Part shown: one piece after another, positions 2,542-35,305 of the stretch | Layout: every line of letters begins with the position of its first letter | How positions within the stretch are numbered: the first letter of the stretch is position 1 | Assembly: GCA_037381105.1 (NCBI GenBank) | Contig: JARRRC010000001.1 | Location: 1 to 39,593 of the forward strand | DNA from: Desulfobacterales bacterium | Lineage (GTDB): Bacteria; Desulfobacterota; Desulfobacteria; Desulfobacterales; UBA11574 | Direction: 5' to 3' | Length of the DNA stretch: 39,593 bases | The notes under the pieces: model-generated | Databases searched by the model: none | Seen by the model: only the letters and a program-made list of their open reading frames with translations | What the model was told of the DNA's origin: nothing | Program-made: the position numbers and the translations under genes

Positions 2542-3418
2542 TGAATTCCTCCATTTCTTCTTCAGTTAAATATTCTTCGTCAAAATAGTGGCCGCTTTCC
2601 AGATCAACTATCTGGTCCGGGTAGCCAGGCCATATGTCATTAGTTAGACAATATACAAGAGTCTGCATATTTTCTTCGTTGTCGAGCTGGGCCCTGTCGA
2701 TCTGGTCACGGGGTACTTTAAAGACGTGGCTTTCGAACGGCGGGTTAACTTCAACTGCGGCAAGATAAAATTCGGAATGTACCAGGCCTGTTACCTGCGT
2801 GAGACCGTCGAGATAAAATGCCCCCTGATTTGCATAGCCAATACGCCGGGCGTTTCTGCAAAAGAACCAGAAACCAGCATCTGCTGTTGATTTTAAATCA
2901 ACCACGGCGCCGGGGGTGCCCTCGCGGATAAAATCTATTTCAGCCTTGCACCACAATCCTGTGCTTAAATCCTGCCAGACAACGACTTTGTGACGGTAGC
3001 CGGGCCCGTTAAAGATCTCGGAAAATCTTTCCTTATTAAATGCGGCTTCGGCCATGGCTATGGTGTTTTTGTAGTCCTCGGCGGTTAAAATAAGCCTGTC
3101 ACTGTTTGCCTCGGCCCAGTCCTTATACTTATTACTGTTGCGATGATAGCCCGGATCGATAACAACTGCTTGGTCCAGCGCATCGCGTCCGCCTAAAATT
3201 AGAATATCAAACGCTTTGCCTCTATCAAATGATTTTTGCAATTGAGCGGAAACAGGCTTTTTATATTCGAACGATGCCTTAAAATGGGCGGCGCTTTTTC
3301 TTAGCGGCTTTAATTCAGAGGATCTTAGAGCGGGGATGGATGCATATTGCTCGTAGGATTCCAAGTCATAGATTCCCTGATTCCAGCCTTCCGGTTGTTC
3401 AAGATAATTAGGAACCAT
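2522..3418 (-). CDS. PD-(D/E)xK exonuclease, RecE/DUF3799-like, the partner of RecT
   Basis: The nuclease core is KAEIDFIREGTPGAVVDLKST followed by QGAFYLDGL. The ATG is at 3418 with an AGGA about 9 nt upstream; the ORF track starts at a TTG at 3427. The gene sits immediately upstream of recT. Confidence 0.7.
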   Translation of the reverse strand: MVPNYLEQPEGWNQGIYDLESYEQYASIPALRSSELKPLRKSAAHFKASFEYKKPVSAQLQKSFDRGKAFDILILGGRDALDQAVVIDPGYHRNSNKYKDWAEANSDRLILTAEDYKNTIAMAEAAFNKERFSEIFNGPGYRHKVVVWQDLSTGLWCKAEIDFIREGTPGAVVDLKSTADAGFWFFCRNARRIGYANQGAFYLDGLTQVTGLVHSEFYLAAVEVNPPFESHVFKVPRDQIDRAQLDNEENMQTLVYCLTNDIWPGYPDQIVDLESGHYFDEEYLTEEEMEEFNDASNF

Positions 3419-3450
3419 TTTTATCAATCCTGTATTTGTTTTGTATTATT

Positions 3451-3490
3451 TCTTGACAGACTCTATACAATTTGATATCTCTTGTCAAGA
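3451..3490. promoter_or_regulatory. Early switch region with overlapping divergent sigma70-like promoters built on an 8-bp inverted repeat (TCTTGACA, 24 nt, TGTCAAGA)
   Basis: Plus strand: TTGACA at 3453..3458, a 17-nt spacer, then TATCTC at 3476..3481 preceded by TG. Minus strand: TTGACA at 3488..3483, a 17-nt spacer, then TAGAGT. Each -35 element lies over the other promoter's start region. The first rightward gene encodes an RHH protein. Confidence 0.45.
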
Positions 3491-3514
3491 TAAAAAAAGG
3501 AGGAAATAACTTAT

Positions 3515-3694
3515 ATGCGAGAAATACAAATAACATTCTGGGTCTATCCGGACGAAAAGGAACGATTCCAAAAAGCTGCGGATCTGCACTCACACGCCCA
3601 GGCAGGCAAAGGGAACCTTTCACAGTTTATCAGGGCATCGATTCACAAGGAAGCCGATGGACTCTTAGGGGATGCTCATGAAAAAGCCGAGTAA
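3515..3694 (+). CDS. Small ribbon-helix-helix (CopG/Arc-like) DNA-binding protein, 59 aa, below the ORF-track size cut-off
   Basis: Manual translation gives MREIQITFWVYPDEKERFQKAADLHSHAQAGKGNLSQFIRASIHKEADGLLGDAHEKAE. The layout is beta-strand (ITFWV), helix (EKERFQKAA), then GNLSQFIRASI. A strong AAGGAGG RBS (about 3497..3503) lies about 11 nt upstream. Confidence 0.6.
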   Translation: MREIQITFWVYPDEKERFQKAADLHSHAQAGKGNLSQFIRASIHKEADGLLGDAHEKAE

Positions 3695-3983
3695 CATTAC
3701 CGGGCTACCGGAACCAAAAGAGGCTGATATCACAAGGTCGATCAGGTACTATCTCAAATCGAGGAACATATTTCATTTCAAGCAATGGCAGGGCCTGGGA
3801 TCGGCGAAGGGAGTCTCTGATATCATTGGTATTTTTAACGGAAGGTTTCTTGCCATAGAAGTAAAGACCAAAAAAGGAAAGCTCTCAGACTACCAGCAAG
3901 CTTTTATTGACAAGGTAAACATCGAGGGCGGTATAGCTTTTGTGGCAAGGTCGGTGTCTGATGTAATCAACCATTTAGAATAG
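3678..3983 (+). CDS. VRR-NUC domain nuclease
   Basis: GVSDIIGIFNGRFLAIEVKTKKGKLSDYQQAFI fits the VRR-NUC PD-(D/E)xK signature (D...E-V-K...Q). AGGGGA lies 5 nt before the ATG at 3678. The gene overlaps the end of the RHH gene. Confidence 0.75.
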   Translation: MKKPSNITGLPEPKEADITRSIRYYLKSRNIFHFKQWQGLGSAKGVSDIIGIFNGRFLAIEVKTKKGKLSDYQQAFIDKVNIEGGIAFVARSVSDVINHLE

Positions 3984-3993: not shown

Positions 3994-5346
3994 ATGGAAA
4001 TCTTTTTAATAAATTATGATAACGGCAGCCGGTGGCCGGTCCTTCCGCAAAATCTTTTTCATTTATATTCGTGCATTGAAGATATCGGCGGGCATGATAT
4101 CTCCATTTTGGATTTTAATTTCTCAAGAATACCACCATATGAAGTTTTACACCAAGAAGAACCTGGCGTCGTCGCCCTCGGGTTTATCTCCGGGTACTGG
4201 CCGCACCAGGAAGCATTAAAGATAGCCGAAGTCATTAAAAACCACCCCAATAGAGATTCAATTCATTTTGTTATCGGCGGGCATGGGCCAAGCGCAGACC
4301 CCCTTTATTATTTAGAGAAACTCGGGGCAGATGCTGTTTTTACAGGATCTGCTGACAACAGCTTTCCATTGTGGCTCAAGAATGGAATGAAACCAGGGAT
4401 TTATGAGAGCCTCGGCTACAATATGGATGTATCTCAATATTATGGCGGCTTTGTTGGCTTTGATGTCTATAAAAGAATCCGCTTCCCCAACACAAAAGAA
4501 AACGAATTTGCTATCCAAATACTATCCGGGCGCGGCTGCCCATATAATTGTGCATTTTGCTTCCGCATGGGCTGCGACTTTTTGCGCTATGATGTCGCCA
4601 ATGTCATAAAAGATATCAAACGCTATGCCATAGAAGACGGCATCAGGCATTTCCAGTTTTCCGACGAGCTTTTAATGATATCCCCATCTATAACGAAAGA
4701 ATGGTGCCGTGCCCTCCAGGATCTGCAAGAGGAAATAGGCATCGATCTTTTCTTCGATTGCAACGGTCGCCTTAATGTCGCTGCAGGAGATCATGACGTG
4801 CTCAGGATGATGAAGGCAACCGGATTTCGCTATATTAATTACGGCTGCGAGTCCATGAGCCAGGAAGCCTTAAACAATATCAACAAGAAGCAGACAGTCG
4901 AACAGATCAGGGACGGTGTTGAGGCTACGATAAAAAATGGCATGACGCCGGGTCTTAATTTTATGTGGGGCAATCCAGGCGATGATTTTGGAAGCCTGAT
5001 GGATGCACAGAAATTTATAGTCGGTCATTCTGACGGCACGGAGCTTAGAACGATACGACCTGTCACGCCATACCCGGGAACAGAGCTTTTTAATATGCTT
5101 GTCGCAGAAGGAAGATGCACCGGGATTGATGATTTCTATGATCATCATGTTAACTCAGATCTTTTCTCTTATCATTTCATGGACGGCATCACGAACGAAG
5201 AAGCAAACCGAATGTTGTGCGGCGCGAATAAATATATATATGATAATTATATTGATAACAAGCAGTCGCGGCAATATGGGGAGATGCTTAAATTCTACTC
5301 AGGAGAAGTCGACCCATTGACTTTCAGAGGGTTTAGGGAGGTATAA
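3994..5346 (+). CDS. Radical SAM enzyme with an N-terminal B12-binding-like (class B) domain
   Basis: 450 aa. The CxxxCxxC cluster motif is in SGRGCPYNCAFCF. The N-terminal ~140 aa looks Rossmann-like (VVALGFISGYW...HFVIGGHGPS), as in cobalamin-type radical SAM proteins. Confidence 0.8.
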   Translation: MEIFLINYDNGSRWPVLPQNLFHLYSCIEDIGGHDISILDFNFSRIPPYEVLHQEEPGVVALGFISGYWPHQEALKIAEVIKNHPNRDSIHFVIGGHGPSADPLYYLEKLGADAVFTGSADNSFPLWLKNGMKPGIYESLGYNMDVSQYYGGFVGFDVYKRIRFPNTKENEFAIQILSGRGCPYNCAFCFRMGCDFLRYDVANVIKDIKRYAIEDGIRHFQFSDELLMISPSITKEWCRALQDLQEEIGIDLFFDCNGRLNVAAGDHDVLRMMKATGFRYINYGCESMSQEALNNINKKQTVEQIRDGVEATIKNGMTPGLNFMWGNPGDDFGSLMDAQKFIVGHSDGTELRTIRPVTPYPGTELFNMLVAEGRCTGIDDFYDHHVNSDLFSYHFMDGITNEEANRMLCGANKYIYDNYIDNKQSRQYGEMLKFYSGEVDPLTFRGFREV

Positions 5347-5349
5347 AAG

Positions 5350-6168
5350 ATGTTGGGAATCAGCACGATAAACATAGAGTTGACAAGCCGCTGTAACAAG
5401 AAATGCCACATGTGCGGCCGCCGCAAGCTGGAGAAAGAAAACCTTGATTATGAATCAACGATGGGCGATATGGAGTGGAATACTTTTGCTAAAATAGTAG
5501 AACAGATTGAGGCCGGCATGGTCGTTCAACTCCACTGGAATGGGGAGCCGACACTTTCTAATTTTCTTTTTGCTGCAAGCTGTACTATAAGAGGCATGGG
5601 TGCATTCGCTTGCATGGATACAAATGGTCTTTTGTTGGGTAAAAAAGCTGATGACCTGGAACATTTCTCTTCCATAACAGTTTCCGTAATCCAGGGAGAT
5701 TCACAAGAGAATTATGATCGACAGATGGCGCAGATTAGGTTCTTTATGGAGACGAATAGATTTCTCGGTTTTTTCCCACAACAGAAAATAAACATCCGCG
5801 CCCTGGGAGAAATCCCGCTTTCTTTTTATCAACTCGCCGGAGAGTACGGGATCGATATCATCCCACGTATATTTCATGCGCCGGAAATGAGCAGAGACTA
5901 TCAAAAACAAGTAACCATGCCGGAAATAGGCGTTTGCCTCGACCTGCTGCATCACCCTGCCATAGACCGCCATGGGAACCTATTCCCTTGTGTGCGCTTT
6001 AACCCTGAAGGGCTAAACTGCCTCGGTAATGTCAATGAACACAGTATAGCAGACCTTTTATCCGGTGAGATCCGCACGGAAATGATCAGAAAACACTTTG
6101 AAGGTAGGCGCAACGAGGTCCCTCTTTGCAATACCTGCCACTATTGGGGTCTTCCGACAGCCCCTTAA
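5350..6168 (+). CDS. Small radical SAM enzyme with a C-terminal SPASM/twitch-like Cys cluster
   Basis: 272 aa. The N-terminal motif is ELTSRCNKKCHMCGR (CxxxCxxC). C-terminal cysteines occur in GVCLDLL, LFPCVRFNP, LNCLGNV and PLCNTCHYWG. The gap to the preceding radical SAM gene is 3 nt. Confidence 0.75.
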   Translation: MLGISTINIELTSRCNKKCHMCGRRKLEKENLDYESTMGDMEWNTFAKIVEQIEAGMVVQLHWNGEPTLSNFLFAASCTIRGMGAFACMDTNGLLLGKKADDLEHFSSITVSVIQGDSQENYDRQMAQIRFFMETNRFLGFFPQQKINIRALGEIPLSFYQLAGEYGIDIIPRIFHAPEMSRDYQKQVTMPEIGVCLDLLHHPAIDRHGNLFPCVRFNPEGLNCLGNVNEHSIADLLSGEIRTEMIRKHFEGRRNEVPLCNTCHYWGLPTAP

Positions 6169-6184
6169 AAAAGAAAGGACAACC

Positions 6185-6946
6185 ATGAACGCAGACACAG
6201 ACAAAGATCTTATCGAAAAATACAATCAGGTCTATGCGGACGGAGAAGAAAAATTCTGGACGTTTCTGCCGGTTGAAGAGCGCCTGGCTATACTTAGAAA
6301 TATTGATCTGCAGGGGAAAACGGTGCTTGAAATAGGCTGTGGCACTGGTGATTTCGCCGCCTGGATGGCATCCTGTGGGGCTAAATTGGTTGTTGCGGCT
6401 GACGCAAGCGGAGCTGCTATCCAAGCAGCCTGCGGGAAATATTGTTTGTCAAATCTTGTCTTTTATGCTTCAGAGCTTAAAATGCTCGGCAATCATAAGG
6501 AATATGATTTTATCGTCATGGTAGGAGTGCTTGAACACTTCAACAATCCAGACGACACAATAGGTTATATCGTCAAGAACATCATGTCCAAAGGTTCCCG
6601 CCTGGTGATAACCTGCCCCCTGTTTATAAATCCCCGTGGCTTTATCTGGGTCGCTCTTAAATATCTTTTCGATGCCCCTATGAGCCTTACCGACAAACAT
6701 GAAATAAGCCCCAACTGGATAAGAAAGATAGCCAAAAAATATGGCCTAAAAACAATCCACACGGAATCGGTTGATTTCAACTGGGGATGCGGGGATAAAA
6801 TGATTTTCGATTATTCCCAAAGACTTCCGAAGGTTTTTCCCGATATGGATGATGAAAAGATAAACAAGATGCTATCATGGCTTAAAGAAAATAAAGAATA
6901 TTTCCAGGGGCTGGGGGCGAACGCGCTTTATATATTGGGAAAGTGA
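6185..6946 (+). CDS. Class I SAM-dependent methyltransferase
   Basis: Motif I is VLEIGCGTGDFAAW, followed by VVAADAS and FIVMVGVLEHF. The ATG at 6185 is preceded by AAAGAAAGGA. The ORF-track start at 6098 would overlap the upstream gene. Confidence 0.8.
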   Translation: MNADTDKDLIEKYNQVYADGEEKFWTFLPVEERLAILRNIDLQGKTVLEIGCGTGDFAAWMASCGAKLVVAADASGAAIQAACGKYCLSNLVFYASELKMLGNHKEYDFIVMVGVLEHFNNPDDTIGYIVKNIMSKGSRLVITCPLFINPRGFIWVALKYLFDAPMSLTDKHEISPNWIRKIAKKYGLKTIHTESVDFNWGCGDKMIFDYSQRLPKVFPDMDDEKINKMLSWLKENKEYFQGLGANALYILGK

Positions 6947-6953
6947 GGCCGAG

Positions 6954-7346
6954 ATGAATAAATCACAAATAGCAGAAATAGTTCTTGATGTGCGTTCGCT
7001 TTGGCAGATTTATTATGTCGAAGGGATTATCGCATCAAAGTATATTAAGTTATACCGGCTTTGGGGCATGAAGTCAGAGATTGCGGAATTGGCAGGCCTT
7101 TGCAGGAGCATCAAACACGGATGCCCGCTTTGTGAATATTTCTTTAATGAGGACAGTGAGTGTGAAAGATGTCCGTTGGATTGGCCAAGAAAAGGTCCTG
7201 ATCATATACCCTGCGAACGTGAAAAGTCCCCTTATTATTTTTGGAAAAAAGCGAAAACGATCAAGCAAGCACGGTCCGCTTGCGACGGCATGATCGAGCT
7301 ATGTGAGAAGTGGCTCGATGAGAATGGTATCGAATACGAAAAGTAA
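6954..7346 (+). CDS. Cys-rich hypothetical protein (CPLC...CERCP...C...C...C), possibly a zinc or Fe-S binder
   Basis: 130 aa containing LCRSIKHGCPLCEYFFNEDSECERCPLDWPRKGPDHIPCE. It is tightly packed behind the methyltransferase gene. I recognised no family. Confidence 0.55.
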   Translation: MNKSQIAEIVLDVRSLWQIYYVEGIIASKYIKLYRLWGMKSEIAELAGLCRSIKHGCPLCEYFFNEDSECERCPLDWPRKGPDHIPCEREKSPYYFWKKAKTIKQARSACDGMIELCEKWLDENGIEYEK

Positions 7347-7372
7347 CGGCTAACCATGCAGGAGGTTTTAAA

Positions 7373-7942
7373 ATGAATGAGCAACAAGCAATCATACGTC
7401 TTTTGCAAGAAATCTGCGATCTTTTTAAAAAACTAATATTCTGCGTGGCCTTATTTGGAGGATGCATATTTTTCCTAATTCTTCTTGGCGGGTGCTCAGG
7501 ATACACCTATAACGGGATAAGAGGAGAAGATTTTCAACACCCTACCCTGGAAATGGCGGCCGGTGTCGGGACAGCATTCGTTGTCCATGCTGCCGGGCAT
7601 TTCGTGGCGATGGCTATAATGGGGCATGAGCTCCACTTCGAAGGCCTCAGCGAAATAACAAATGACGAACTTACCGATTCTGAGGCGGCGTGGTTCGGAC
7701 GTGCGGGGTTCCTTACTGCAAATGGCGTCGGTTGGGCGGCAAAAGCACTCGGCGCTAAAGGAAAATTCTGGCGTGGCTATAACGCCGGAGTTGCCTTTGA
7801 GACTGCAACATACCCGATGTGGGATAATGTGCGCGGAGAAGGTGACGACCTGAAGATGATCGACCGCCATGGTTACGGGAGCTTGGAATGGGGGATGTGG
7901 TCGGCTTCTTCAATAGGTCTTAACTTTGAGCTGGAAAAATAA
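7373..7942 (+). CDS. Putative lipoprotein or membrane protein
   Basis: The N-terminal hydrophobic stretch ends in a lipobox-like LLGGC|SGY. AGGAGG lies upstream of the ATG at 7373. I recognised no family. Confidence 0.55.
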   Translation: MNEQQAIIRLLQEICDLFKKLIFCVALFGGCIFFLILLGGCSGYTYNGIRGEDFQHPTLEMAAGVGTAFVVHAAGHFVAMAIMGHELHFEGLSEITNDELTDSEAAWFGRAGFLTANGVGWAAKALGAKGKFWRGYNAGVAFETATYPMWDNVRGEGDDLKMIDRHGYGSLEWGMWSASSIGLNFELEK

Positions 7943-8895: not shown

Positions 8896-9210
8896 ATGAA
8901 GACAGAAATAGAAATAAACCTAACCCCAGAGCAGCTTGCCGCTTCGTTCATCCATTGGTCAAGCGACGAACAAGCCAATTTCATCAACCTAATCGGGAAA
9001 CAATTTAAATTATGCGATTTTAGCGCAGAGGAGCAATGCTGCTGGTTAGCGAACGACATCAACAAAGACGGCAAGGATTTTATCTTCACAGTAGCGAACT
9101 TTCTGAAATGCGTAGGCCTGCCGTCCTCGTCTCCAAAGATTGATACGCTGATAAATTCATATGATACTGAAGGTTTAGCGCGACCGAGCCAGCACCACAA
9201 CCAATTGTGA
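8896..9210 (+). CDS. Hypothetical protein
   Basis: 104-aa ORF with GGGAG upstream. I recognised no family. Confidence 0.5.
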   Translation: MKTEIEINLTPEQLAASFIHWSSDEQANFINLIGKQFKLCDFSAEEQCCWLANDINKDGKDFIFTVANFLKCVGLPSSSPKIDTLINSYDTEGLARPSQHHNQL

Positions 9211-9282
9211 CACGTTGAAAGGGGGAAACCAGGATTGACACATGCGCGGATTGTATGGCGCTGCCCGCTTTATGGTGCGGTG

Positions 9283-9301
9283 GGCAGCCGCGCTAAAATA
9301 A
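9283..9301. repeat. 19-bp direct repeat, left copy, flanking the C5-methyltransferase gene
   Basis: ggcagccgcgctaaaataa occurs at 9283..9301 and again at 10165..10183. The second copy includes the last codons and the stop of the MTase gene. Upstream similarity extends imperfectly (tttatgg...). Confidence 0.9.
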
Positions 9302-9305
9302 ATAA

Positions 9306-10178
9306 ATGAACTATTATAACGACAATGATAAATTTTGTTCCAAGTGGCTGAAGGATCTTATCAAAGCAAAGCTTATTCCATGTGGGGAAGTCGATGACAG
9401 ATCAATTAAAGAGATATCTCCTAAAGAACTCCAAGGATACAAGCAATGCCACTTTTTCGCAGGCATTGGAGGATGGGCTTACGCACTCAGATTGGCTGGA
9501 TGGCCGGAAGACAAGCCCGTGTGGACGGGAAGTTGCCCTTGCCAGCCATTTAGTATCGCCGGAAAAGGCCAAGGAGTTAATGACAACAGACACCTTTGGC
9601 CCGCTTTTCGATGGCTTATCTCTCAGTGCAGACCTGCAACAATTTTTGGGGAACAGGTTGCGTCAAAAGCTGGGCGTGAATGGCTCTCCGGAATACGTCT
9701 TGACTTGGAAGCGATGGGATATGTGTTCGGGGCCGCCGATCTGTGCTCTGCGGGCGTCGGTGCGCCGAACATCAGGCAAAGATTGTTTTGGGTGGCCGAC
9801 GCCAAACACTCCGAATGGAGGAAGAAAAACGCCACCGGGCACCAGCACAACAGGAAAGACGCCGGACGGGAAAAAGCGCCAGGTGGATCTGCAGCATGTG
9901 GCTCTTTCGATATCAGGCTGGCCAACTACGAGAGCGAACGATTCGGAAAAACGCGGGAATGTATCGGAGGACAGGCGCAAGGGACTCCCTGGTCAAAGTC
10001 TACAGATATCGAGTGCAGAGACGGAAAAAGACGAAGGATACCTATTGAACCCGCTCTTTCCCCTCTGGCTCCAGGGCTACCCAAAAGAGTGGGCTTATTG
10101 CGTGGTGCCGGAAATTCAATCAATCCTTGGGTAGCCAAAATATTTATTGAGGCGTTTATGGATTGGCAGCCGCGCTAA
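9306..10178 (+). CDS. DNA (cytosine-5)-methyltransferase, phage type
   Basis: The motifs are FFAGIGGW (I), TGSCPCQPFSIAGK (IV), IFGEQV (VI), GVGAPNIRQRLFWVA (VIII) and RGAGNSINPWVAKIFIEAF (X). The N-terminus YYNDNDKFCSKWLKDLI and the C-terminal CRDGKRRRIPIEP...PKRVGLLRG match the phage Dcm subfamily I recall. Confidence 0.85.
   Translation: MNYYNDNDKFCSKWLKDLIKAKLIPCGEVDDRSIKEISPKELQGYKQCHFFAGIGGWAYALRLAGWPEDKPVWTGSCPCQPFSIAGKGQGVNDNRHLWPAFRWLISQCRPATIFGEQVASKAGREWLSGIRLDLEAMGYVFGAADLCSAGVGAPNIRQRLFWVADAKHSEWRKKNATGHQHNRKDAGREKAPGGSAACGSFDIRLANYESERFGKTRECIGGQAQGTPWSKSTDIECRDGKRRRIPIEPALSPLAPGLPKRVGLLRGAGNSINPWVAKIFIEAFMDWQPR
9394..10134 (+). CDS. Long alternative-frame ORF nested in the C5-MTase gene, encoding a GWPTP-repeat and LNPxFxxWLxGxPxxW-box protein. 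It may be an overprinted gene or a recoded segment.
   Basis: The +1 frame relative to the MTase is open from GTG 9382 (ATG 9394) to 10134. It reads GSPEYVLTWKRWDM..PPICALRASVRRTSGKDCFGWPTPNT...SGWPTTRANDSEKRGN...LLNPLFPLWLQGYPKEW. I recognise these motifs from prophage proteins. See the findings for caveats. Confidence 0.35.
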   Translation: MTDQLKRYLLKNSKDTSNATFSQALEDGLTHSDWLDGRKTSPCGREVALASHLVSPEKAKELMTTDTFGPLFDGLSLSADLQQFLGNRLRQKLGVNGSPEYVLTWKRWDMCSGPPICALRASVRRTSGKDCFGWPTPNTPNGGRKTPPGTSTTGKTPDGKKRQVDLQHVALSISGWPTTRANDSEKRGNVSEDRRKGLPGQSLQISSAETEKDEGYLLNPLFPLWLQGYPKEWAYCVVPEIQSILG

Positions 10179-10183
10179 AATAA
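10165..10183. repeat. 19-bp direct repeat, right copy (see 9283..9301)
   Basis: Identical string ggcagccgcgctaaaataa. Confidence 0.9.
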
Positions 10184-10200
10184 TGACAAAGGGGATTATT

Positions 10201-10509
10201 ATGCCAAGAAACATGAGTCGCGAAAAAACAGTCACGCGCCGCGTAGGATGGAACTTTCTAAAACCAGGTGATATCTTGCAGGCTGTCGAAAAGGCGCAGG
10301 GACTCAAGAAGGGTGAAAAAGTCAAACGCATTTGTTTAATAAGGGTTATTTCCTGCCGGCATGAGCCATTAAATAAAATAACTGCGGCAGATTGTATCCT
10401 TGAAGGATTCCCCGAAATGAGTCCACGCGAATTCGTTAATATGTTCTGTGCAGCTAATAAGTGGCATCCATCCAAGGATGTAAACCGGATCGAGTTTGAA
10501 TATATTTGA
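10201..10509 (+). CDS. ASCH (PUA-like) domain protein
   Basis: KTVTRRVGWNFLKPGDILQAVEK...ICLIRVISCRHEPL is a typical ASCH N-terminal pattern. AAAGGGGA lies 6 nt before the ATG at 10201. The ORF-track start at 10147 overlaps the MTase gene. Confidence 0.65.
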   Translation: MPRNMSREKTVTRRVGWNFLKPGDILQAVEKAQGLKKGEKVKRICLIRVISCRHEPLNKITAADCILEGFPEMSPREFVNMFCAANKWHPSKDVNRIEFEYI

Positions 10510-10515
10510 TAAAAA

Positions 10516-10544
10516 TTGACATCCGCTTGTAATTATGTTTTAGT
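10516..10544 (+). promoter_or_regulatory. Possible sigma70-like promoter for the replication module
   Basis: TTGACA at 10516..10521, a 17-nt spacer, then TTTAGT at 10539..10544 preceded by TGt. The -10 element is weak. Confidence 0.3.
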
Positions 10545-10592
10545 GGTGATGCTATGTTAGTGTGCTGCTCTAAAACTATTAAATTCAAATTT

Positions 10593-10657
10593 TGCCCTGG
10601 GCGCATGGTTAATTTACCTACCTGATAGCTCATTAACATAGCACATGCGTCCCAGGG
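10593..10657. other. Long imperfect hairpin (14-bp outer stem with one bulge, plus a 6-bp inner stem) in the intergenic region upstream of the replication genes
   Basis: gccctgggcgcatg (10593..10606) pairs with catgcgTcccagggc (10643..10657). The inner pair is gttaat (10607..10612) with attaac (10631..10636). No T-run follows on either strand. Confidence 0.6.
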
Positions 10658-10667
10658 CACTACAAAA

Positions 10668-10844
10668 ATGGATAAACCACCGATGGAACCAATAGAAAAA
10701 GTTCAAAGGTTAGCGGCTATAGGAAAGCATGTCGCGTTAATCAATAAACGATATGGTTTCAATGATGATCATAAATTAATTTCCACATTGAAAGAGGTTA
10801 AAGAAGCATTAAGGAATAGAATAATAGAGATATTGGAATCATGA
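10668..10844 (+). CDS. Possible small ORF (58 aa) translationally coupled to dnaB
   Basis: Manual translation gives MDKPPMEPIEKVQRLAAIGKHVALINKRYGFNDDHKLISTLKEVKEALRNRIIEILES. Its stop overlaps the dnaB ATG (ATGA at 10841..10844). There is no clear SD sequence. Confidence 0.35.
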   Translation: MDKPPMEPIEKVQRLAAIGKHVALINKRYGFNDDHKLISTLKEVKEALRNRIIEILES

Positions 10845-12130
10845 GTAAAATTCTTCCACACAACATAGAAGCAGAAGAAAGTATAATTTCATCCTGCTTG
10901 CTTGGGGGATATAAAGAACCATGCGCGACACTGGAACCATCTGATTTTTATAAAACAGCACACCAAAAAATATTCATTTCAATTCAATCTCTTGCATCAA
11001 CAAACAAGCCCATTGATTTAATCACTGTAATAGATGCGCTGACTCAAATAAGCAAATTCATTAATACAATTCCGGTAGCCAATTCAATCACCCATTATTG
11101 CAAAATCATAAAAGAAAAAGCATTAAAAAGGCAGATCATATCAAGATGTAACGATTTGATGCAGAATTGTTTTAACGATAATCACATCGGAGATCTGCTT
11201 GAAGAAGCAAAGTATATTTCCGAACTCGGCGAAACAGGGCTCATCAACAGGAAAAGAAAAGTTGATTTGTCTAACGTTTATGATGCCAAGCGCATGCTGC
11301 TTGAATATGATTTATATGTAAAGACCTTGAAAAACAATCGTTTCATTACTGGAATAGGAGAAATTGATAAGAGAATCAGGGGGGTCGCCGGTGGTGAAAC
11401 TATGTTCATAATCGCCAGGGCCGGAGCCTATAAAACTGCATTGCTGCAAAATCTATTAAGAAACTATGTTAATAACTCTGCCTGGGGGTCCGTATTCTTT
11501 TCGATAGAAATGCCTATTTCAAATATCGCGGAAAGATATCTGCAGCAATTTGATAGATCACCCGGATATCAAATTGAACAGCATTACGCCAATAACGATG
11601 AGGATTCAATCTCAGCCCTGGAGAAACGCTTCAGAAATGAACTTAAACGTTTCTTTGTCGTCCCAACCAAGGTCAGCCTATCAGATATAGAGCAATATAT
11701 TAAAATCATTGAAGATTCAAAACAATTAAAAATAGGCTTAATCGGTATCGATTACATGCAACTAATCGACGAGCCCGGGAAAGAATACGAGCAAATTACT
11801 AAAATTGCACGCGGCAGTAAAGACCTGGCAAAATATTTAAATATTCCAGTTATTGTTTTGTCGCAAATCAACCGGCAAGGCGAGGATGGAAACACAGAAG
11901 TTTCTCTTTCCATGGGGCGGGGTTCCGGGGCTATCGAGGAAGCCGCTGATTTCATGCTCGGACTCTGGAAAAATAACGAAGACCTGATTTGCAAGATACT
12001 AAAAAACCGTAAGGGTTCAGCGGGTTCGATGTGGAAACTTGAACTTGATTCAAATTGTTTTCTGATAGGCCAGAATTCCGTCAGGTATTCTAAAACAAAA
12101 ACCAAAAAATCAAATGGGTATTGTGATTAA
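10841..12130 (+). CDS. dnaB: Replicative DNA helicase, DnaB family
   Basis: The N-terminus LPHNIEAEESIISSCLLGG is the classic DnaB opening. The C-terminal RecA-like domain carries IIARAGAYKTALLQN (Walker A variant), FFSIEMP, LIGIDYMQLI (Walker B) and VIVLSQINRQ. Confidence 0.85.
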   Translation: MSKILPHNIEAEESIISSCLLGGYKEPCATLEPSDFYKTAHQKIFISIQSLASTNKPIDLITVIDALTQISKFINTIPVANSITHYCKIIKEKALKRQIISRCNDLMQNCFNDNHIGDLLEEAKYISELGETGLINRKRKVDLSNVYDAKRMLLEYDLYVKTLKNNRFITGIGEIDKRIRGVAGGETMFIIARAGAYKTALLQNLLRNYVNNSAWGSVFFSIEMPISNIAERYLQQFDRSPGYQIEQHYANNDEDSISALEKRFRNELKRFFVVPTKVSLSDIEQYIKIIEDSKQLKIGLIGIDYMQLIDEPGKEYEQITKIARGSKDLAKYLNIPVIVLSQINRQGEDGNTEVSLSMGRGSGAIEEAADFMLGLWKNNEDLICKILKNRKGSAGSMWKLELDSNCFLIGQNSVRYSKTKTKKSNGYCD

Positions 12131-16077: not shown

Positions 16078-17566
16078 CTATAAAGCCCACAAAACGCTTT
16101 CCAGGTTCCACCACTCAAAGGCCTTTCACCGTGCGATCCGTGGCCCCAGGGGTTCCGGTAAATCAACCGGTTGTTGTGTTGAACTCGGAATAAAAGGCCA
16201 GCAGCAAGCGCCTTACCACGACCTTAGGCAGACACGCTTTGCAATCGTAAGAGACACCTACCGGGAGCTTGAAGACACCACCATCAAGACCTGGTGCCGC
16301 TGGTATCCAGAAGAATTCACCGGCCCAATTAACCGGGGCACTATGAGCCATACTATCCGCCAAAAACTTCCAGACGGTACTATGTGGGAAATGGAGGCTC
16401 TTTTCAGAGCTCTGGACCGGCCTGGTGATATCAAGAAAACCCTTTCGCTGGAACTTACAGGGGCCTATATCAACGAAGCCAAAAATACTCCTTTCGGCAT
16501 TATATCAGGCCTTGATGATGCTATCGGTAGGTTTCCTCCCAAGGATCTATCTGTCGGATTCAATGGCCCGACATGGGCAGGGATGATCCTCGATACCAAT
16601 AGTCCAGACGATGACCACTGGTGGTATAAGCTCGATGAACAATTTCGCAACGGGGAGTTAGACCCTAAGGCATGGCAGTTTTTTGATCAGCCTGGGGGGC
16701 TTATTGAGCGTGGCGGTAAGTTTTTTGCCAACCCCAAGGCTGAAAACCTGGAAAACCTACCGGATGATTTTTATCTCATGCGTATGGTAGGAAAGTCCAA
16801 GGACCACATCAGAGTCTATTACTGCAATCAGTACGGCTTTGTTATCGACGGCATGCCGGTGCACCCGGATTATGTTGACGCTACCCACTGCCCCGGCGAG
16901 GAAATCAATCCAGCCAAGGGAAGAGCTGTAATTGTGGGTATTGACTTTGGTCTTACACCGGCCGCTACCTTCGGCCAGCAGCTTGTAAACGGCCGCTGGG
17001 TTGTTTTTGATGAACTGGTGACCGAGCGCATGGGGGCCGATAACTTCGGGAGAGAGCTAAAACTAAAGATCCAGTCAGAATACCCGGATTTTAAGTTTAA
17101 ATTCTATGGCGATCCTGCCGGCGGAGATGATAGCCAGACAGATGAGCGCACTTGTTTCCAGGTTCTGGCCACCCACGGCATCAACGCAGAGCCTGCAGTC
17201 GTCAAATCCAAGGCACGCAATGACACGGAAATACGTCGCGGGGCACTCAGAGCGCCTCTTACTCGCATGATCGACGGCAAACCCGGTATATTGATCAGCC
17301 CGAAGTGTAAAGTCCTGAGGAAAGCCCTCTCAGGCGGTTTCTGTTTCAAGAAAAAACAGATTGTTGGATCTGAGCAATACCATGCCACCCCGGACAAAAA
17401 CAAATACAGCCATGTGGCTGAGGCCTGCGAATATATGTGCATAGGCGGCGGCGAGGGGGAACGGCTGATAGAAGCGCCGCCTCAAGATGTCGATACCTCG
17501 TTGTGGGATCTAAATATCGAAATAGACCATGGGGCCGGTGATGCAAGCCTCGGGTGGATGGGATAA
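16064..17566 (+). CDS. terL: Terminase large subunit
   Basis: Walker A is IRGPRGSGKSTG. The Walker B region is MILDTNSPDDDHWW. Nuclease-domain segments are VGIDFGLTPAA, GDPAGG and YSHVAEACEYM. GGGGAG lies before the ATG at 16064. Confidence 0.9.
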   Translation: MPKLSYKAHKTLSRFHHSKAFHRAIRGPRGSGKSTGCCVELGIKGQQQAPYHDLRQTRFAIVRDTYRELEDTTIKTWCRWYPEEFTGPINRGTMSHTIRQKLPDGTMWEMEALFRALDRPGDIKKTLSLELTGAYINEAKNTPFGIISGLDDAIGRFPPKDLSVGFNGPTWAGMILDTNSPDDDHWWYKLDEQFRNGELDPKAWQFFDQPGGLIERGGKFFANPKAENLENLPDDFYLMRMVGKSKDHIRVYYCNQYGFVIDGMPVHPDYVDATHCPGEEINPAKGRAVIVGIDFGLTPAATFGQQLVNGRWVVFDELVTERMGADNFGRELKLKIQSEYPDFKFKFYGDPAGGDDSQTDERTCFQVLATHGINAEPAVVKSKARNDTEIRRGALRAPLTRMIDGKPGILISPKCKVLRKALSGGFCFKKKQIVGSEQYHATPDKNKYSHVAEACEYMCIGGGEGERLIEAPPQDVDTSLWDLNIEIDHGAGDASLGWMG

Positions 17567-17568
17567 CC

Positions 17569-18039
17569 ATGGATTTAACCGGCATAGGAAGCGTGGCCGA
17601 TTTTGCCAAGAGCATCGTCGATCGTATTTTCCCGCCGTCTGCCGATCCGAATGAGCGGATGAAAGCCCAGGCTGAAATGGAACGGATGTTAGCCGAGCGC
17701 GAAAATGTCCTGGTCCAGGCAAAGGCCGCTGTTATGACCTCCGAGCTCACTCAGGACGACTCATACACCAAGCGCGGTCGACCGACGATCATTTATGCCG
17801 GTCTTGTTTTTATTTTCCTTGTGCATGTCCTGTTTCCGATTATCGCCTGGGCCGTTTTGATGTTTAAGGGATCCGGCGCGGCAATGCCCTCCCTGGCCCT
17901 TCCCTCTGAATTCTGGATGGCCTGGGGTGGGTGTTGCTCTCTTTATATCCTGGGGCGCAGTAAGGAAAAAAGCAGCGGCGAACTAGGCGGGATCTTTGGT
18001 AAAATTTACGATGTCGTAGGTGGTAAAAATAATGGCTAA
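17569..18039 (+). CDS. 3TM holin-like membrane protein (GTA_holin_3TM / DUF3154-like)
   Basis: The pattern is FAKSIVDRIFPPSADPNERMKAQAEMERML, then RGRPTIIYAGLVFIFLVHVLFPIIAWAV, then further TM segments. This matches the layout I recall for that family. Confidence 0.5.
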   Translation: MDLTGIGSVADFAKSIVDRIFPPSADPNERMKAQAEMERMLAERENVLVQAKAAVMTSELTQDDSYTKRGRPTIIYAGLVFIFLVHVLFPIIAWAVLMFKGSGAAMPSLALPSEFWMAWGGCCSLYILGRSKEKSSGELGGIFGKIYDVVGGKNNG

Positions 18040-20011
18040 AAAGATAAAAACCGTAAACGAAGTCGAACTGATCCAGCGGGCGAAAAAGAATTTCAAATTT
18101 GATTTTGACGCCTGTAAGGAAACCTACGACGAGATGATCGACGATTTGTATTTCGGCCAGGGGATTAACCAGTGGCCCGACAGCGTAAGGGTAGCCCGCG
18201 AAAACGATAAGAGGCCGTGCCTGCGCATAAATAAAATGCCCCAGTTTGTCGATCGTGTGCTCGGAGATTTAAGACAGTCCAGGCCAACGATTAAGGCCAG
18301 GCCGTTTGATGATAGAGCCGATAAAGACACAGCAGAGATCATCGGCGGCATAATCCGTAATATCGAGCAACAAAGCGATGCCGAAATAGTTTACGACTCA
18401 GGCGCCGAGGCCATGGTGCGCTGCGGCTATGGAGCCTGGCGCGTCCTCACTGATTATGTTTCCGACGAGTCTTTTGATCAGGAAATCCTGATCGACAGGA
18501 TTAAAAACCAATTTTCCGTTGTTTTTGATGCAAATGCCAAAAAATGGGATAAATCAGACGCCAGACGCGCTTATGTCTACGAGGACATGCCGAGGGATGT
18601 TTTCAAGCAGCGCTGGCCGAAAAAAGATCCCTGTGATTTTTCTGCGGGCGGCAAGGACCAGGGCGACTGGATTCGAGAAGATACTGTGCGGGTCATGGAA
18701 TACTTTGAGCGGGATATTACCTCGCACAAGCTGTATTTGATTTTGCCGGACGGACAACAAGACACTAAAACTGTAACCGAGCTGCCCGCAGATTATCAAT
18801 ATGCAATCATAAAAGAGCGCACGATACAGGATCCCACAATCACATGGTACAGGATCAGCGGTAAAGAAATCCTTGAAGGACCTATCGAGCTTAAAGGGCA
18901 ATACATCCCGCTTATTCCCTGTTACGGCAAGGAAACCAATATCGAGGGAAAATCTTATTACAACGGCATTATCCGGCACGCCAAGGATTCTCAGCGGCTT
19001 TACAACTATTTCAGGTCCTACGATGCTGAAACAATAGCCCTGGCGCCCAAGGCGCCATGGATCATGACCGCCAAAATGCTCGGGACCTACAAGGCGCAGT
19101 GGGACCAAGCCAACGAACGCAATTTTTCATATCTGCTGTACGACCCAGACCCCAATGCGCCCGGGGTCAAGCCTGAACGCAATATCCCCCAAATGACAAA
19201 TCAGGCCATAATTCAGCAGGTCATGATTGCTGACCAAGAGCTGCACGACACAACCGGCCTGCAGCTTGCCAGCCTCGGCAAGAAATCAAACGAGCAAAGC
19301 GGAGCTGCTATCCAGGCCAGGGCCAAAGAGGGCGATATAGGACAATTTACCTACATTGACAATGTGATGCGGGCGATTAAGCACACAGCCAAAATTATTG
19401 TTGATCTGATCCCCTACATTTACGACACGGCCAGAGTACAGCGCATTATCGGCGAGGACGGCGAGTCGAAAACGGTAAAGATTAACGAGCAGTTCGAGGA
19501 CGAGAAAACAAAAGAATCACGCATATTTGATATGACCATGGGAAAATATGACGTTATTGCCTCGGTCGGCCCGAGCTACCAGACACAGCGCCAGGAAGCT
19601 CTGGCTGCAATGATAGATTTTGCTAAGATCCTCGATAACCAGCAGCGGGCAATCATCTCAGATCAGATTGCAGCCACCTCCGACTGGCACGGAGCCGATA
19701 GGATAGCCAAGCGCCTAAAGCGTACCATTCCGCCCAATCTTTTGGGTCCGGAAGATGCCGAGGAAGACCCGCAACCGCCTGCACCGCCAAACGAACAGGA
19801 GATTAAAATGCAGGCCATGGCGGATGCCAAGATGGAGGTTGAACAGGAAACCGCTGAAGTCGAGCTGGCTATTAAAAAAGCCGAGCTTGAAGAGAAAAAG
19901 GCCAAAGCCGCTATTGCCGAAGCCGAGGCAGCAATAAAAGAAGCCGAGGCGACAGATGTTGCCAGAGGCTTCCAGCGTCCCGATAATTCCAGCGCAAGGG
20001 CTACAGCGTAA
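18032..20011 (+). CDS. Portal protein (P22-like)
   Basis: 660 aa following TerL. It contains GQGINQWPDSVRVARENDKRPCLRINKMPQFVDRVLGDLRQSRPTIKARP and an Ala/Glu-rich coiled-coil C-terminal barrel, as in P22-type portals. Confidence 0.8.
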   Translation: MAKKIKTVNEVELIQRAKKNFKFDFDACKETYDEMIDDLYFGQGINQWPDSVRVARENDKRPCLRINKMPQFVDRVLGDLRQSRPTIKARPFDDRADKDTAEIIGGIIRNIEQQSDAEIVYDSGAEAMVRCGYGAWRVLTDYVSDESFDQEILIDRIKNQFSVVFDANAKKWDKSDARRAYVYEDMPRDVFKQRWPKKDPCDFSAGGKDQGDWIREDTVRVMEYFERDITSHKLYLILPDGQQDTKTVTELPADYQYAIIKERTIQDPTITWYRISGKEILEGPIELKGQYIPLIPCYGKETNIEGKSYYNGIIRHAKDSQRLYNYFRSYDAETIALAPKAPWIMTAKMLGTYKAQWDQANERNFSYLLYDPDPNAPGVKPERNIPQMTNQAIIQQVMIADQELHDTTGLQLASLGKKSNEQSGAAIQARAKEGDIGQFTYIDNVMRAIKHTAKIIVDLIPYIYDTARVQRIIGEDGESKTVKINEQFEDEKTKESRIFDMTMGKYDVIASVGPSYQTQRQEALAAMIDFAKILDNQQRAIISDQIAATSDWHGADRIAKRLKRTIPPNLLGPEDAEEDPQPPAPPNEQEIKMQAMADAKMEVEQETAEVELAIKKAELEEKKAKAAIAEAEAAIKEAEATDVARGFQRPDNSSARATA

Positions 20012-20595
20012 TGCATATCGTTAAAAACACCATAGACAGGCCTCTAAAAAACCATGATTTTTTGTTGATCACGGGAGACGGCAAGCCTTTACCCCGAGAT
20101 CTTGAAACGTTTATGGATCTCGGCATTGACCATGATGTAATGTGCATTGGCCGGTCAATCCAGATATACCCCGGGCTTGTTGATCATTATGCTGATGTTG
20201 ATGCCGATGCCGGCAAGTGGGTTGCTGAAAACCTGATCGAAAATAATCCGGACAAGGGCTACCCGATCAGGCATACCCTCGGCGATGTTGCCTGGTTTGA
20301 TGTTTGTTGGGAAATCGAAGATTGCCTAATTCCATCCGAGGATATTCTGTGGCACGGATCAACGGCGCTGTTTTGTGTTCTGATAGGAATTGCAATGGAA
20401 TATAAGCAGATTGTGCTTGCAGGCTGCCCTATGGACTCCAAGGGGCATTGGTATTTCCCGGATGAAACTTATGGCCCCAAATGGACGTTTGAAAGCTATC
20501 AATCCTGGTTTGAGTTTGCCGCAACAGAGGATGCTAAAAAAGTATGCTCTTTAAGCGGCTACACGAAACAACTTTTAGGCGGGTTCAATGGATAG
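20011..20595 (+). CDS. CstII/Maf (DUF115, MptE-like)-type putative nonulosonic-acid transferase, paralog 1
   Basis: DFLLITGDGKPL, DVMCIGRS and GSTALFCVLIGIAMEYKQIVLAGCPMDSKGHWY parallel C. jejuni CstII segments VIIAGNGPSL, DVFRCNQFY and ITSGVYMCAVAIALGYKEIYLSGIDFY (recalled from memory). Confidence 0.5.
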   Translation: MHIVKNTIDRPLKNHDFLLITGDGKPLPRDLETFMDLGIDHDVMCIGRSIQIYPGLVDHYADVDADAGKWVAENLIENNPDKGYPIRHTLGDVAWFDVCWEIEDCLIPSEDILWHGSTALFCVLIGIAMEYKQIVLAGCPMDSKGHWYFPDETYGPKWTFESYQSWFEFAATEDAKKVCSLSGYTKQLLGGFNG

Positions 20596-21247
20596 CAACT
20601 TCTTAAGCACGGTACAGCCGTACAGAATCGATCCAAAACGCTGGTGGGTTGATATCCCGGTAAAGGACGCCTCTGAGTTAAAGCCCGACACAGGCAATGA
20701 TGTCCTGTTAATCGTCGGAGACGGCCGGGACGTGCTCGCCGATCTGATTAATTTCTGGGGCATACAGGAGCCCGCCGATATCATGTGCATGAATTTTTCC
20801 CCTAAAATTATCCCCGAGGGGGTGCCCATCCAGCACTATATTGCAGGGGATAGCCACACGCCGAGCATGCAAAAAATAGCGGGACAACTGCCCTCCGGTG
20901 TTTTGCGGCATTGCTGGAACCAGAACAGCACGAATTTTGATATCCGGTGGGGGCGCAATACGTCCAAGGGCTGGACCGGAACAACCGCCAACCTCGGCGT
21001 TAAAATAGGCATTGCTTTAGGCTATATGAAAATAGTCTTGGCCGGCTGTCCTATGGATACCAGCGGCAACTGGTACCGCGACAGCCTGCCTGAAAACGAT
21101 GTAAAACGCGGTAAGGATCACACCGCGCACTTGTGGAAGTGGACCGAAATAGCATCCCGGCCGATAGGTCGGTTTATCCGCTCGATGAGCGGGAACACCG
21201 CCATGTTGTTTGGCGAGCCTGACAAGGAGTGGCTGCAAAATGTTTAA
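20588..21247 (+). CDS. CstII/Maf (DUF115, MptE-like)-type putative nonulosonic-acid transferase, paralog 2
   Basis: VLLIVGDGRDV, DIMCMNFS and GTTANLGVKIGIALGYMKIVLAGCPMDTSGNWY show clear paralogy to the preceding ORF and use the same motif set. Confidence 0.5.
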   Translation: MDSNFLSTVQPYRIDPKRWWVDIPVKDASELKPDTGNDVLLIVGDGRDVLADLINFWGIQEPADIMCMNFSPKIIPEGVPIQHYIAGDSHTPSMQKIAGQLPSGVLRHCWNQNSTNFDIRWGRNTSKGWTGTTANLGVKIGIALGYMKIVLAGCPMDTSGNWYRDSLPENDVKRGKDHTAHLWKWTEIASRPIGRFIRSMSGNTAMLFGEPDKEWLQNV

Positions 21248-27796: not shown

Positions 27797-28021
27797 ATGG
27801 CTATTATAAAATCCATAAGCGTTCCAAAAACAACGGATGTAAAAGAACTCAGGAAATGGTTTGAGCAAATATCAGAAAAATTCTCGTATCAAAGCTATGC
27901 CGGAGATCCTACGTCCAACATCCTGCCACGCTGGACAGGAGATCTGTGTTTGGATACGACCAATAACGATTGGTATAAGGCAACAGGAACGGCGGCCGCG
28001 GACTGGAAAGCCTTGACATGA
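27797..28021 (+). CDS. Hypothetical small virion-module protein
   Basis: The ATG at 27797 lies 2 nt after the upstream stop. The ORF track begins at a TTG at 27791. Confidence 0.45.
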   Translation: MAIIKSISVPKTTDVKELRKWFEQISEKFSYQSYAGDPTSNILPRWTGDLCLDTTNNDWYKATGTAAADWKALT

Positions 28022-34948: not shown

Positions 34949-35305
34949 ATGGTAAAGAAAATAAACAACAAAATGACTGTCATGGGGTGGGGAAAGCTGC
35001 AAAAATGGGCCGCCGTCATTGTGGCTTTTTGCGTTTTTGGAATCATCGGCCGTTTCGGTATATGGGTGTTTAACGGAATAGCCAGCGCTTATTCAAACAC
35101 CATTAAGATAGAAAACAACGTGACCCATATTATAGCGCTGGGCGAGCATATTAAAAACATCCAAAAAGAGATGGGCGATAATATCAAGGATCTTCAAAAA
35201 ACAAGCAACCAGATAGAAAAAGACGTTGCCGTCAATAAGAAGATCCTTGAAAAATTAGATATAAAGTTTGAGCAGAAGGTCAATTCATTAAGGAGGGCTA
35301 AGTGA
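34949..35305 (+). CDS. Type-II membrane protein with a coiled-coil ectodomain, possibly i-spanin-like or holin-associated
   Basis: The ATG is at 34949. An N-terminal TM segment (AAVIVAFCVFGIIGRFGIWVF) is followed by a heptad-rich charged helix. The functional call is speculative. Confidence 0.35.
   Translation: MVKKINNKMTVMGWGKLQKWAAVIVAFCVFGIIGRFGIWVFNGIASAYSNTIKIENNVTHIIALGEHIKNIQKEMGDNIKDLQKTSNQIEKDVAVNKKILEKLDIKFEQKVNSLRRAK

Follow-up and report, generated by a model that had tools for sequence, protein, structure and literature searches.

Pathways for bacterial nonulosonic acids (legionaminic, pseudaminic and sialic acids) are built around a NeuB-family synthase and a CTP_transf_3 cytidylyltransferase, and Maf enzymes are flagellin transferases. 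Among radical S-adenosylmethionine (SAM) enzymes, BtrN is the 2-deoxy-scyllo-inosamine dehydrogenase of the butirosin pathway, where its partner aminotransferase is DegT-type, and AprD4 is a 1,2-diol dehydratase of the apramycin pathway. Regarding phages, virion glycosylation in mycobacteriophages depends on phage-encoded glycosyltransferases and on host nucleotide-sugar pools. The subject here is a stretch of 39,593 nucleotides (contig JARRRC010000001.1 of assembly GCA_037381105.1, from a Desulfobacterales bacterium), referred to below as the window, and in particular a group of genes at 3994-7942 that opens with two radical SAM genes and a methyltransferase gene. These three genes (genes 1-3) belong with four sugar-acid genes lying elsewhere in the window, and it is probable that their products are the tailoring enzymes of a phage pathway of seven genes, encoded in two separate places, that leads to a decorated 3-deoxy-2-ulosonic, sialic-acid-like sugar activated with cytidine monophosphate (CMP). 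NeuB pathways, Maf transferases and the chemistry of BtrN and AprD4 have all been described before; what is not known is the way in which they are combined, the tailoring of a nonulosonate by radical SAM enzymes and the occurrence in a phage. In the literature searched, nothing connects phages with the synthesis of nonulosonates, with radical SAM tailoring or with virion glycosylation of the Maf type.

A conserved seven-gene set in a phage genome

The window is a phage genome, in which a terminase, a portal, a scaffold, a P22-like major capsid protein and head-closure and ejection proteins were identified, together with DnaB, a replication initiator, a RecT-like annealing protein and a PDDEXK exonuclease. 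Its two ends are joined by an exact direct repeat of 119 bp (1-119 = 39475-39593), so that the window is a circular assembly of about 39.47 kb and probably a complete phage genome. Neither blastn nor megablast gave a nucleotide match to it among cultured phages.

The preliminary description of the window had grouped five genes into one cassette:

3994-5346, + strand, gene 1: class-B-like radical SAM enzyme, 450 aa
5350-6168, + strand, gene 2: twitch radical SAM enzyme, 272 aa
6185-6946 (ATG start, 253 aa) or 6098-6946 (TTG start, 282 aa), + strand, gene 3: class I methyltransferase
6954-7346, + strand, gene 4: Cys-rich protein, 130 aa
7373-7942, + strand, gene 5: probable lipoprotein, 189 aa

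The tight packing reported for these genes is correct (gaps of 3, 16, 7 and 26 nt with the ATG start of gene 3), and the quoted motifs GCPYNCAFC (gene 1), GCGTG (gene 3) and CPLC...CERCP...C (gene 4) are present in the translations, as are CNKKCHMC and C-terminal cysteines in gene 2 and LLGGC in gene 5. The grouping itself has to be redrawn, the conserved unit being composed of genes 1-3 and of four genes found among the following at 35302-38644:

35302-36144, + strand: short NeuB-family ulosonic-acid synthase (phosphoenolpyruvate plus aldose), 280 aa (Pfam NeuB, 1.2e-62)
36152-36475, - strand: VOC/glyoxalase-fold protein (Pfam Glyoxalase, 1.3e-07), kept in 11 cassette loci
36472-37515, - strand: class III aminotransferase of the ArgD/ornithine/GABA type (Pfam Aminotran_3, 5.7e-62)
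37536-37913, - strand: open reading frame (ORF) of 125 aa between aminotransferase and cytidylyltransferase, without a family and without a homologue in the other loci
37910-38644, - strand: CTP_transf_3 cytidylyltransferase, PseF/KdsB-like (Pfam, 1.6e-15), present in 17 cassette loci

Across the circular junction, these sugar-acid genes lie only about 4.8 kb from the start of gene 1 (3994).

The trio of class-B-like radical SAM, twitch radical SAM and class I methyltransferase genes is found in this order on about 20 distinct contigs of uncultured phages, which show 37-90% identity and span lineages with P22-like and lineages with SU10-like capsids. Of the five-gene order whose conservation across phages was to be checked, the trio recurs; among these loci, genes 4 and 5 are found only in a 90%-identical phage (L088). 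In every sufficiently long phage relative, the trio is accompanied by NeuB, CTP_transf_3 and aminotransferase genes, and usually by the VOC gene, most often as a contiguous run of cytidylyltransferase, aminotransferase, (VOC), NeuB, class-B-like radical SAM, twitch radical SAM and methyltransferase. When all ORFs of the cassette loci are clustered, exactly these seven families come out as the conserved non-structural set. As a variation on the trio, the phage contig L002 has an ORF of 214 aa (3124-3768, + strand) between the class-B-like and twitch radical SAM genes; judged from reading its sequence, it resembles a Dam-type DNA methylase with a degenerate catalytic motif, WLNSNHG.

The window NeuB reaches 212 bits with the NCBIfam model NeuB_NnaB (cut-off 400; profile positions 2-274 of 329) and 159 bits with the PseI equivalog (cut-off 340), and it has no C-terminal SAF domain; all cassette-linked NeuB proteins are of similar length, 274-290 aa. 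The best NCBIfam match of the cytidylyltransferase is PseF (81 bits, cut-off 206), and the enzyme would make the CMP-activated form of the sugar acid. A class III aminotransferase is found in 16 cassette loci, and is replaced by a class IV enzyme in phage L007 and in the cellular locus L091. Genes of the SIS_2 family (sugar-phosphate isomerase) occur near the cassette in phage L090 (15065-15664) and in the cellular locus L092 (9385-9969), and L001 has an ORF that reads as HD-type phosphohydrolase-like (9167-9694, judged from reading the sequence). Taken with the SAF-less NeuB, the SIS_2 and HD-type genes give a hint of a sugar-phosphate precursor.

The seven families can be placed in a plausible sequence of steps. 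NeuB would condense phosphoenolpyruvate with a host aldose; the BtrN-like twitch enzyme would oxidize a sugar hydroxyl to a carbonyl independently of oxygen, and the aminotransferase would convert this carbonyl into an amine. The class I methyltransferase would add a methyl group to N or O, while the class-B-like radical SAM enzyme would catalyze a C-methylation if it binds cobalamin, or else an AprD4-like dehydration. The VOC protein is a possible epimerase or isomerase of the keto intermediate. The cytidylyltransferase would then form the CMP-sugar, and two Maf-like transferases encoded between the portal and scaffold genes would pass the sugar to protein, most plausibly of the virion.

Compared with the bacterial nonulosonic acid pathways, the phage set has the synthase and cytidylyltransferase in common, and homologues of gene 1 are found inside nonulosonic acid and flagellin glycosylation islands. 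It differs in the absence of a 4,6-dehydratase, a DegT aminotransferase, an N-acetyltransferase, a 2-epimerase and the SAF domain, in an apparent amination by a radical SAM enzyme plus a class III/IV aminotransferase, and in the position of its transferase candidates in the head module. Maf-type flagellin glycosylation is matched by MptE-like/Maf transferases, which are Pfam-significant in phage L007 and have probable remote homologues in the window. As in mycobacteriophages, candidate glycosyltransferase genes of the phage stand beside structural genes and, in the proposal made here, the acceptor is a virion protein. Unlike mycobacteriophages, the window phage would encode the whole route to its donor, an acidic nine-carbon-type sugar tailored by radical SAM enzymes.

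Two radical SAM enzymes and a methyltransferase

In gene 1, a CxxxCxxC core is preceded by an N-terminal Rossmann/B12-binding-like domain, with Pfam matches to Radical_SAM (2e-16) and, barely above the cut-off, to B12-binding (2.6e-08; 34.1 bits, cut-off 32.1). The cysteines C182, C186 and C189 are invariant in alignments of 42 sequences, and the family counts 2809 homologues (E up to 1e-10), many of them on contigs of about 40 kb. In the AlphaFold2 (AF2) model of the protein (predicted local distance difference test, pLDDT, 91.8), the best PDB fold match is AprD4 (6fd2; TM-score 0.70/0.70, E 7e-19, full length), which also tops the sequence-profile search (E 7e-20); TsrM, MgmA (9ccb, cobalamin-dependent) and OxsB come next. 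AprD4 binds no cobalamin (PMC12931638). Hence, as regards the "B12-type" label given earlier to gene 1, the Pfam match supports it marginally, and cobalamin use stays uncertain with a cobalamin-free enzyme as the nearest structure. Gene 1 shares a Rossmann/B12-like domain and a radical SAM core with AprD4, MgmA, TsrM, TokK and CysS, while its identity to AprD4 and to these cobalamin-dependent class B radical SAM methyltransferases is 14-18%. It fails the AprD4-family equivalog NF033070 (41.2 bits, cut-off 500), and no AprD3-like partner reductase is found among the conserved cassette genes. Among cultured phages, the one tblastn match, in Streptomyces phage SF3, was partial and 25% identical, and a BFVD fold search retrieved only distant class-B-like radical SAM proteins of uncultured phages. 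Gene 1 would thus act on the sugar acid in one of two ways, as a C-methyltransferase or as an AprD4-like dehydratase, and its sequence is compatible with both.

Gene 2 matches SPASM (7e-07) and Radical_SAM (2.5e-04) in Pfam. In the alignment of its family (569 homologues, rarer than that of gene 1), the only invariant cysteines are C15, C19 and C22 of the radical SAM cluster and the auxiliary C196, C214, C260 and C263; with four auxiliary cysteines only, it is a twitch enzyme with one auxiliary cluster and not a full SPASM protein. The earlier "SPASM/twitch" assignment is therefore kept in its twitch part only, in line with a TIGR04085 score of 20 bits (cut-off 27). The resemblance to BtrN noticed by the preliminary description is borne out by both sequence and fold: BtrN is the best PDB sequence match (phmmer E 5.9e-06, both domains aligned) and the top Foldseek match of the AF2 model (4m7t, TM-score 0.66/0.73; pLDDT 88.3), ahead of DesII, EpeE and BlsE. 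The two proteins are alike in size, in having one auxiliary cluster, in cysteine spacing and in having an aminotransferase nearby. They differ in sequence (identity about 17-18%), in context (ulosonic acid for gene 2, aminocyclitol for BtrN) and in the class of the partner aminotransferase, class III/IV for gene 2 as opposed to DegT-type for BtrN. An aminotransferase, of class III or IV, accompanies the gene 2 family in all phage and cellular loci examined, and it is because of this constant pairing that a two-electron oxidation of a hydroxyl is predicted. Gene 2 would thus be an anaerobic sugar-hydroxyl dehydrogenase feeding the aminotransferase. Gene 3, which matches the class I SAM-dependent families Methyltransf_23/25/12/11 in Pfam, belongs to a family found downstream of the twitch radical SAM gene in 19 loci, either directly or after one or two small genes; an N- or O-methylation of the sugar is the role expected for it. 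The subfamily searches proposed earlier by profile and by structure thus gave the fold matches to AprD4 and BtrN, and no NCBIfam equivalog or PHROG above cut-off for any of the five genes.

Both nearest structures, AprD4 and BtrN, belong to enzymes that act on aminoglycoside sugars, which fits the genomic context. As these relatives are part of antibiotic pathways, a free small molecule, whether aminoglycoside-like or a sugar-acid metabolite, could be considered as the end product in place of a glycoconjugate donor. Such a product is very unlikely given the conserved cytidylyltransferase, which implies activation for transfer, and the cellular counterparts are flanked by glycosyltransferases and exporters.

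The same pair of radical SAM enzymes had also been read as a maturation system for a ribosomally synthesized and post-translationally modified peptide (RiPP), with the Cys-rich protein of gene 4, or another small ORF, as substrate. SPASM/twitch and class B radical SAM enzymes are indeed common in RiPP pathways, and the Cys-rich ORF directly follows the methyltransferase gene. This second reading of the preliminary description is abandoned here as extremely improbable: among the relatives examined, only the 90%-identical phage has the Cys-rich protein, and the trio has no small ORF conserved with it; the four conserved auxiliary cysteines of gene 2 are not the seven-cysteine SPASM motif; the nearest structures are those of sugar enzymes; and NeuB and the cytidylyltransferase are invariably co-located with the trio. 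The first reading, according to which the cassette tailors a sugar acid made elsewhere in the genome, is backed by gene co-occurrence, by the nearest structures and by the cellular loci described below.

Cellular counterparts, candidate transferases and the proposed destination of the sugar

A profile scan with gene 1 of bacterial and archaeal genomes yielded 159 full-length relatives at 32-37% identity, mostly in anaerobes, some of them on complete chromosomes. The gene 1 loci analysed number 87 and comprise 8 phage-type contigs (one binned in a metagenome-assembled genome) and 79 cellular loci. Within 10 kb of the gene 1 homologue, NeuB is found in 66 of the 87 and the cytidylyltransferase in 70. 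In most of the 79 cellular loci (L009-L087), which come from anaerobic bacteria and Asgard archaea, the class-B-like radical SAM gene adjoins NeuB or the cytidylyltransferase, an indication that the tailoring of cellular nonulosonate glycans includes a step not yet assigned. Pfam confirms a flagellin glycosylation island in L038, where Maf, flagellin, dehydratase, DegT, NTP-transferase, acetyltransferase and 2-epimerase genes surround the gene 1 homologue (9983-11389). Such a run, in Wukongibacter baidiensis, takes in the gene 1 homologue together with Maf, four flagellin genes, Maf, 4,6-dehydratase, DegT aminotransferase, CBS-nucleotidyltransferase, acetyltransferase, NeuB, 2-epimerase and cytidylyltransferase, which we take to resemble a legionaminic-acid-type flagellin glycosylation island.

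The twitch radical SAM gene, where it is present in cells, comes with the phage-type gene set. L092 combines SIS_2, twitch, short NeuB, cytidylyltransferase, class III aminotransferase, VOC, two methyltransferases and class-B-like radical SAM genes with an ABC transporter, and has glycosyltransferases on its flanks (a Pfam-annotated polysaccharide cluster). The same gene set was recognized by phmmer in L021, where the flanking transporter genes were judged by reading N-termini only, and L091 has a variant of it with a class IV aminotransferase, like phage L007.

Candidates for the transfer of the sugar are a pair of adjoining paralogs in the head module of the window:

20011-20595, + strand: candidate Maf/GT42-like nonulosonate transferase, paralog a, between portal and scaffold
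20588-21247, + strand: candidate Maf/GT42-like nonulosonate transferase, paralog b, adjoining paralog a

Their motifs LLIxGDGxxL and GsSALFAV..LAMGYxxIVLAGCPMD.GHWY align with the GPSL and core motifs of Maf. When the paralog family was compared by hhalign with an alignment of 28 Maf-domain sequences from the cellular loci, a probability of 88.6% (E 2.6e-06, 126 columns) was obtained, controls (Rossmann-type, other families and a reversed alignment) giving 1.1% at most; with an approximate Cst-II sequence, of which only residues 111-167 are verified, it was 24.8% over 33 columns. Sub-threshold matches to the Maf hidden Markov model are dominated by the paralog family, the members of which are mutually homologous and hence not independent. 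The pair is present in 11 cassette-bearing loci, and among the informative IMG/VR loci it occurs together with the cassette in 9 of 9, none of them being a relative without the cassette. The two proteins are thus probable remote homologues of Maf, with a predicted role as nonulosonate transferases.

In phage L007, two Pfam-significant MptE-like genes (Maf family) stand beside the capsid gene, interleaved with the pathway genes. A phmmer search of the window with these L007 proteins gave no match, and an IMG/VR search with one Maf protein gave one close relative only. Significant Maf-like genes also occur near gene 1 homologues in L102 (9193-9990), L108 (11337-12098) and L109 (7809-8534), and abut them in L102 and L108. 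These three are IMG/VR contigs of 66-106 kb, presumed viral, with more distant gene 1 homologues; NeuB is found on all three and the cytidylyltransferase on L108 and L109.

More tentatively than the pathway itself, we propose that the Maf-like pair transfers the sugar to protein, most plausibly to virion proteins. In a broader and tentative proposal, which is possible rather than probable, widespread phages of about 40 kb infecting anaerobes would put a hitherto undescribed amino- and methyl-substituted nonulosonic acid on their own virion proteins. It would be made by an oxygen-independent late-stage route, in which a short NeuB is followed by a BtrN-like radical dehydrogenase with a transaminase and then by an AprD4/class-B-like radical SAM enzyme, and minimal Maf-like transferases from the head module would attach it. 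The main rival keeps the same pathway and sends the sugar to the host surface, via host or phage Maf-like transferases, onto flagellin, pilin, S-layer or lipopolysaccharide. The receptor would thereby be remodelled, e.g., for superinfection exclusion or to keep progeny off debris. This destination accords with the neighbourhood of the gene 1 homologues, which in most cellular loci adjoin NeuB or the cytidylyltransferase, with the Maf and flagellin genes confirmed in L038, and with the many cellular loci labelled Desulfobacterales, Desulfobacteraceae or Desulfobacula; the source contig of the window is itself assigned to the order Desulfobacterales. We regard it as rather unlikely, since the absence of an integrase-sized gene from the window makes lysogenic conversion unlikely, the candidate transferases lie inside the head-morphogenesis module both here and in L007, and no flagellin-related gene is found in the window.

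Several observations weigh against the proposed pathway and the virion as its destination. Within the window, the trio is separated from the sugar genes and belongs to the early/replication region. Neither paralog at 20011-21247 has a match in Pfam (PF01973 included) or PHROG; a first hhalign comparison with six Maf sequences gave a probability of 2.9%; and the top matches of the PDB profile search, all of them sialyltransferases (Cst-I, Cst-II and a lipooligosaccharide sialyltransferase), are non-significant (E 0.5-1.4). Shared ancestry confounds the association between the pair and the cassette; the informative relatives included none that lacks the cassette. The marginal B12-binding score of gene 1 and its cobalamin-free nearest structure count against a firm assignment of cobalamin use, as does the missing SAF domain against a firm substrate for NeuB. 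For neither radical SAM family is an enzyme activity or product on record, and neither passes an NCBIfam equivalog cut-off. Finally, we infer both the sugar acceptor and the exact chemistry.

If the pathway model is true, phages can encode everything needed to make an acidic, sialic-acid-like donor sugar and, in addition, the transferases for it, which would amount to a new form of virion camouflage or stabilization, or of host-surface remodelling, and would matter for phage-host recognition. With the virion as acceptor, this would give a first example of a "sialylated" phage particle, and nonulosonic acid chemistry would gain two new radical SAM reactions, in bacterial flagellin glycosylation as well. 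No function is assigned to the more than 2800 class-B-like and 569 twitch radical SAM homologues, and the compactness of the phage operons allows a direct test of either reaction. The model would also account for a so far unannotated step in the tailoring of flagellin and polysaccharide glycans in many anaerobes, among them Desulfobacterota, Nitrospirota, Lachnospiraceae, Geobacter and Asgard archaea.

Nucleic-acid modification and the neighbouring genes

The surroundings of the trio had suggested another possibility, a modification of DNA or RNA either by attachment of the sugar acid to a base or by direct radical SAM chemistry. The trio is near VRR-NUC, Dcm-like, Mom-like and replication genes, and phage DNA glycosylation is established in other systems. 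Nevertheless, this reading is highly improbable. As the preliminary description had stated for known hypermodification routes, no hydroxymethylase, FolE, QueCDE or DpdA is found with Pfam, PHROG and NCBIfam among essentially all ORFs longer than 100 aa, where only a Dcm-like methylase and a Mom-like protein came up. The same three collections gave no kinase (5-hydroxymethyldeoxyuridine kinase included), aGPT-Pplase, preQ0-related or DNA glycosyltransferase gene among the window ORFs, so that neither a base-activating nor a DNA-transferase gene was found among them. Furthermore, the cellular homologues belong to loci for flagellin and polysaccharide, the DNA methylases near the trio do not recur with the cassette, and we know of no DNA glycosylation from a CMP donor. 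Taken together, the three readings offered earlier are partly supported, the sugar-acid reading being the one retained.

The genes of possible relevance to DNA modification are the following:

622-1131, - strand: Mom-like DNA modification protein, 169 aa (PHROG 1384, 3e-26)
9306-10178, + strand: Dcm-like C5-cytosine methylase (Pfam, profile positions 65-178 of 324 only)
10147-10509, + strand: ORF of 120 aa overlapping the Dcm-like methylase, with an ASCH match below threshold (E 0.011)

The Mom-like protein is probably the gene called "GNAT-like" before; elsewhere it is found in L003 only, and has thus no link to the cassette.

Genes 4 and 5 have no Pfam family and, being common only to the window and the 90%-identical phage L088, are neighbours and not members of the cassette. 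L088 provided the only homologue of gene 4 among the relatives with phmmer --max, and again the only one in the wider set of phage loci at standard threshold. The gene 4 family, with 25 homologues among 1.84 billion representatives, consists of free-standing proteins of 105-154 aa that share five invariant cysteines (C57, C60, C70, C73, C87) and an almost invariant W17, P93 and W97, and that have the appearance of a metal-binding module. As a candidate RiPP substrate it was ruled out, since it is missing from all relatives examined except L088. Gene 5 has 18 homologues overall, the one in L088 being the only one among the cassette loci. The lipobox reported for it is confirmed, C41 being invariant in 15 homologues and the conserved mature domain following it directly; gene 5 is a probable lipoprotein, which also has the conserved H72, H76 and H88 and the motifs AAWFGR and GDD. 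Its family also occurs in early regions of other phages that have no sugar genes (L137, 8001-8582; L138, 6001-6498), and gene 5 was ruled out as a cassette member on account of these unrelated contexts. L138 further contains, at 9772-11976, a bifunctional PfkB plus CTP_transf_like gene and a SIS_2 gene, in appearance an ADP-heptose-type sugar module.

A promoter and terminator scan of the window gave no signal above the shuffled background. Two further genes of the structural region have domain matches, the second only just above its cut-off:

17554-18039, + strand: GTA_holin_3TM domain protein (2.6e-21), between the large terminase and the portal
28018-28524, + strand: ORF of 168 aa in the tail/ejection module, citrate synthase C-terminal domain (Pfam, 30.2 bits, cut-off 27)

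The latter also has weak NCBIfam matches to citryl-CoA lyase and citrate synthase.

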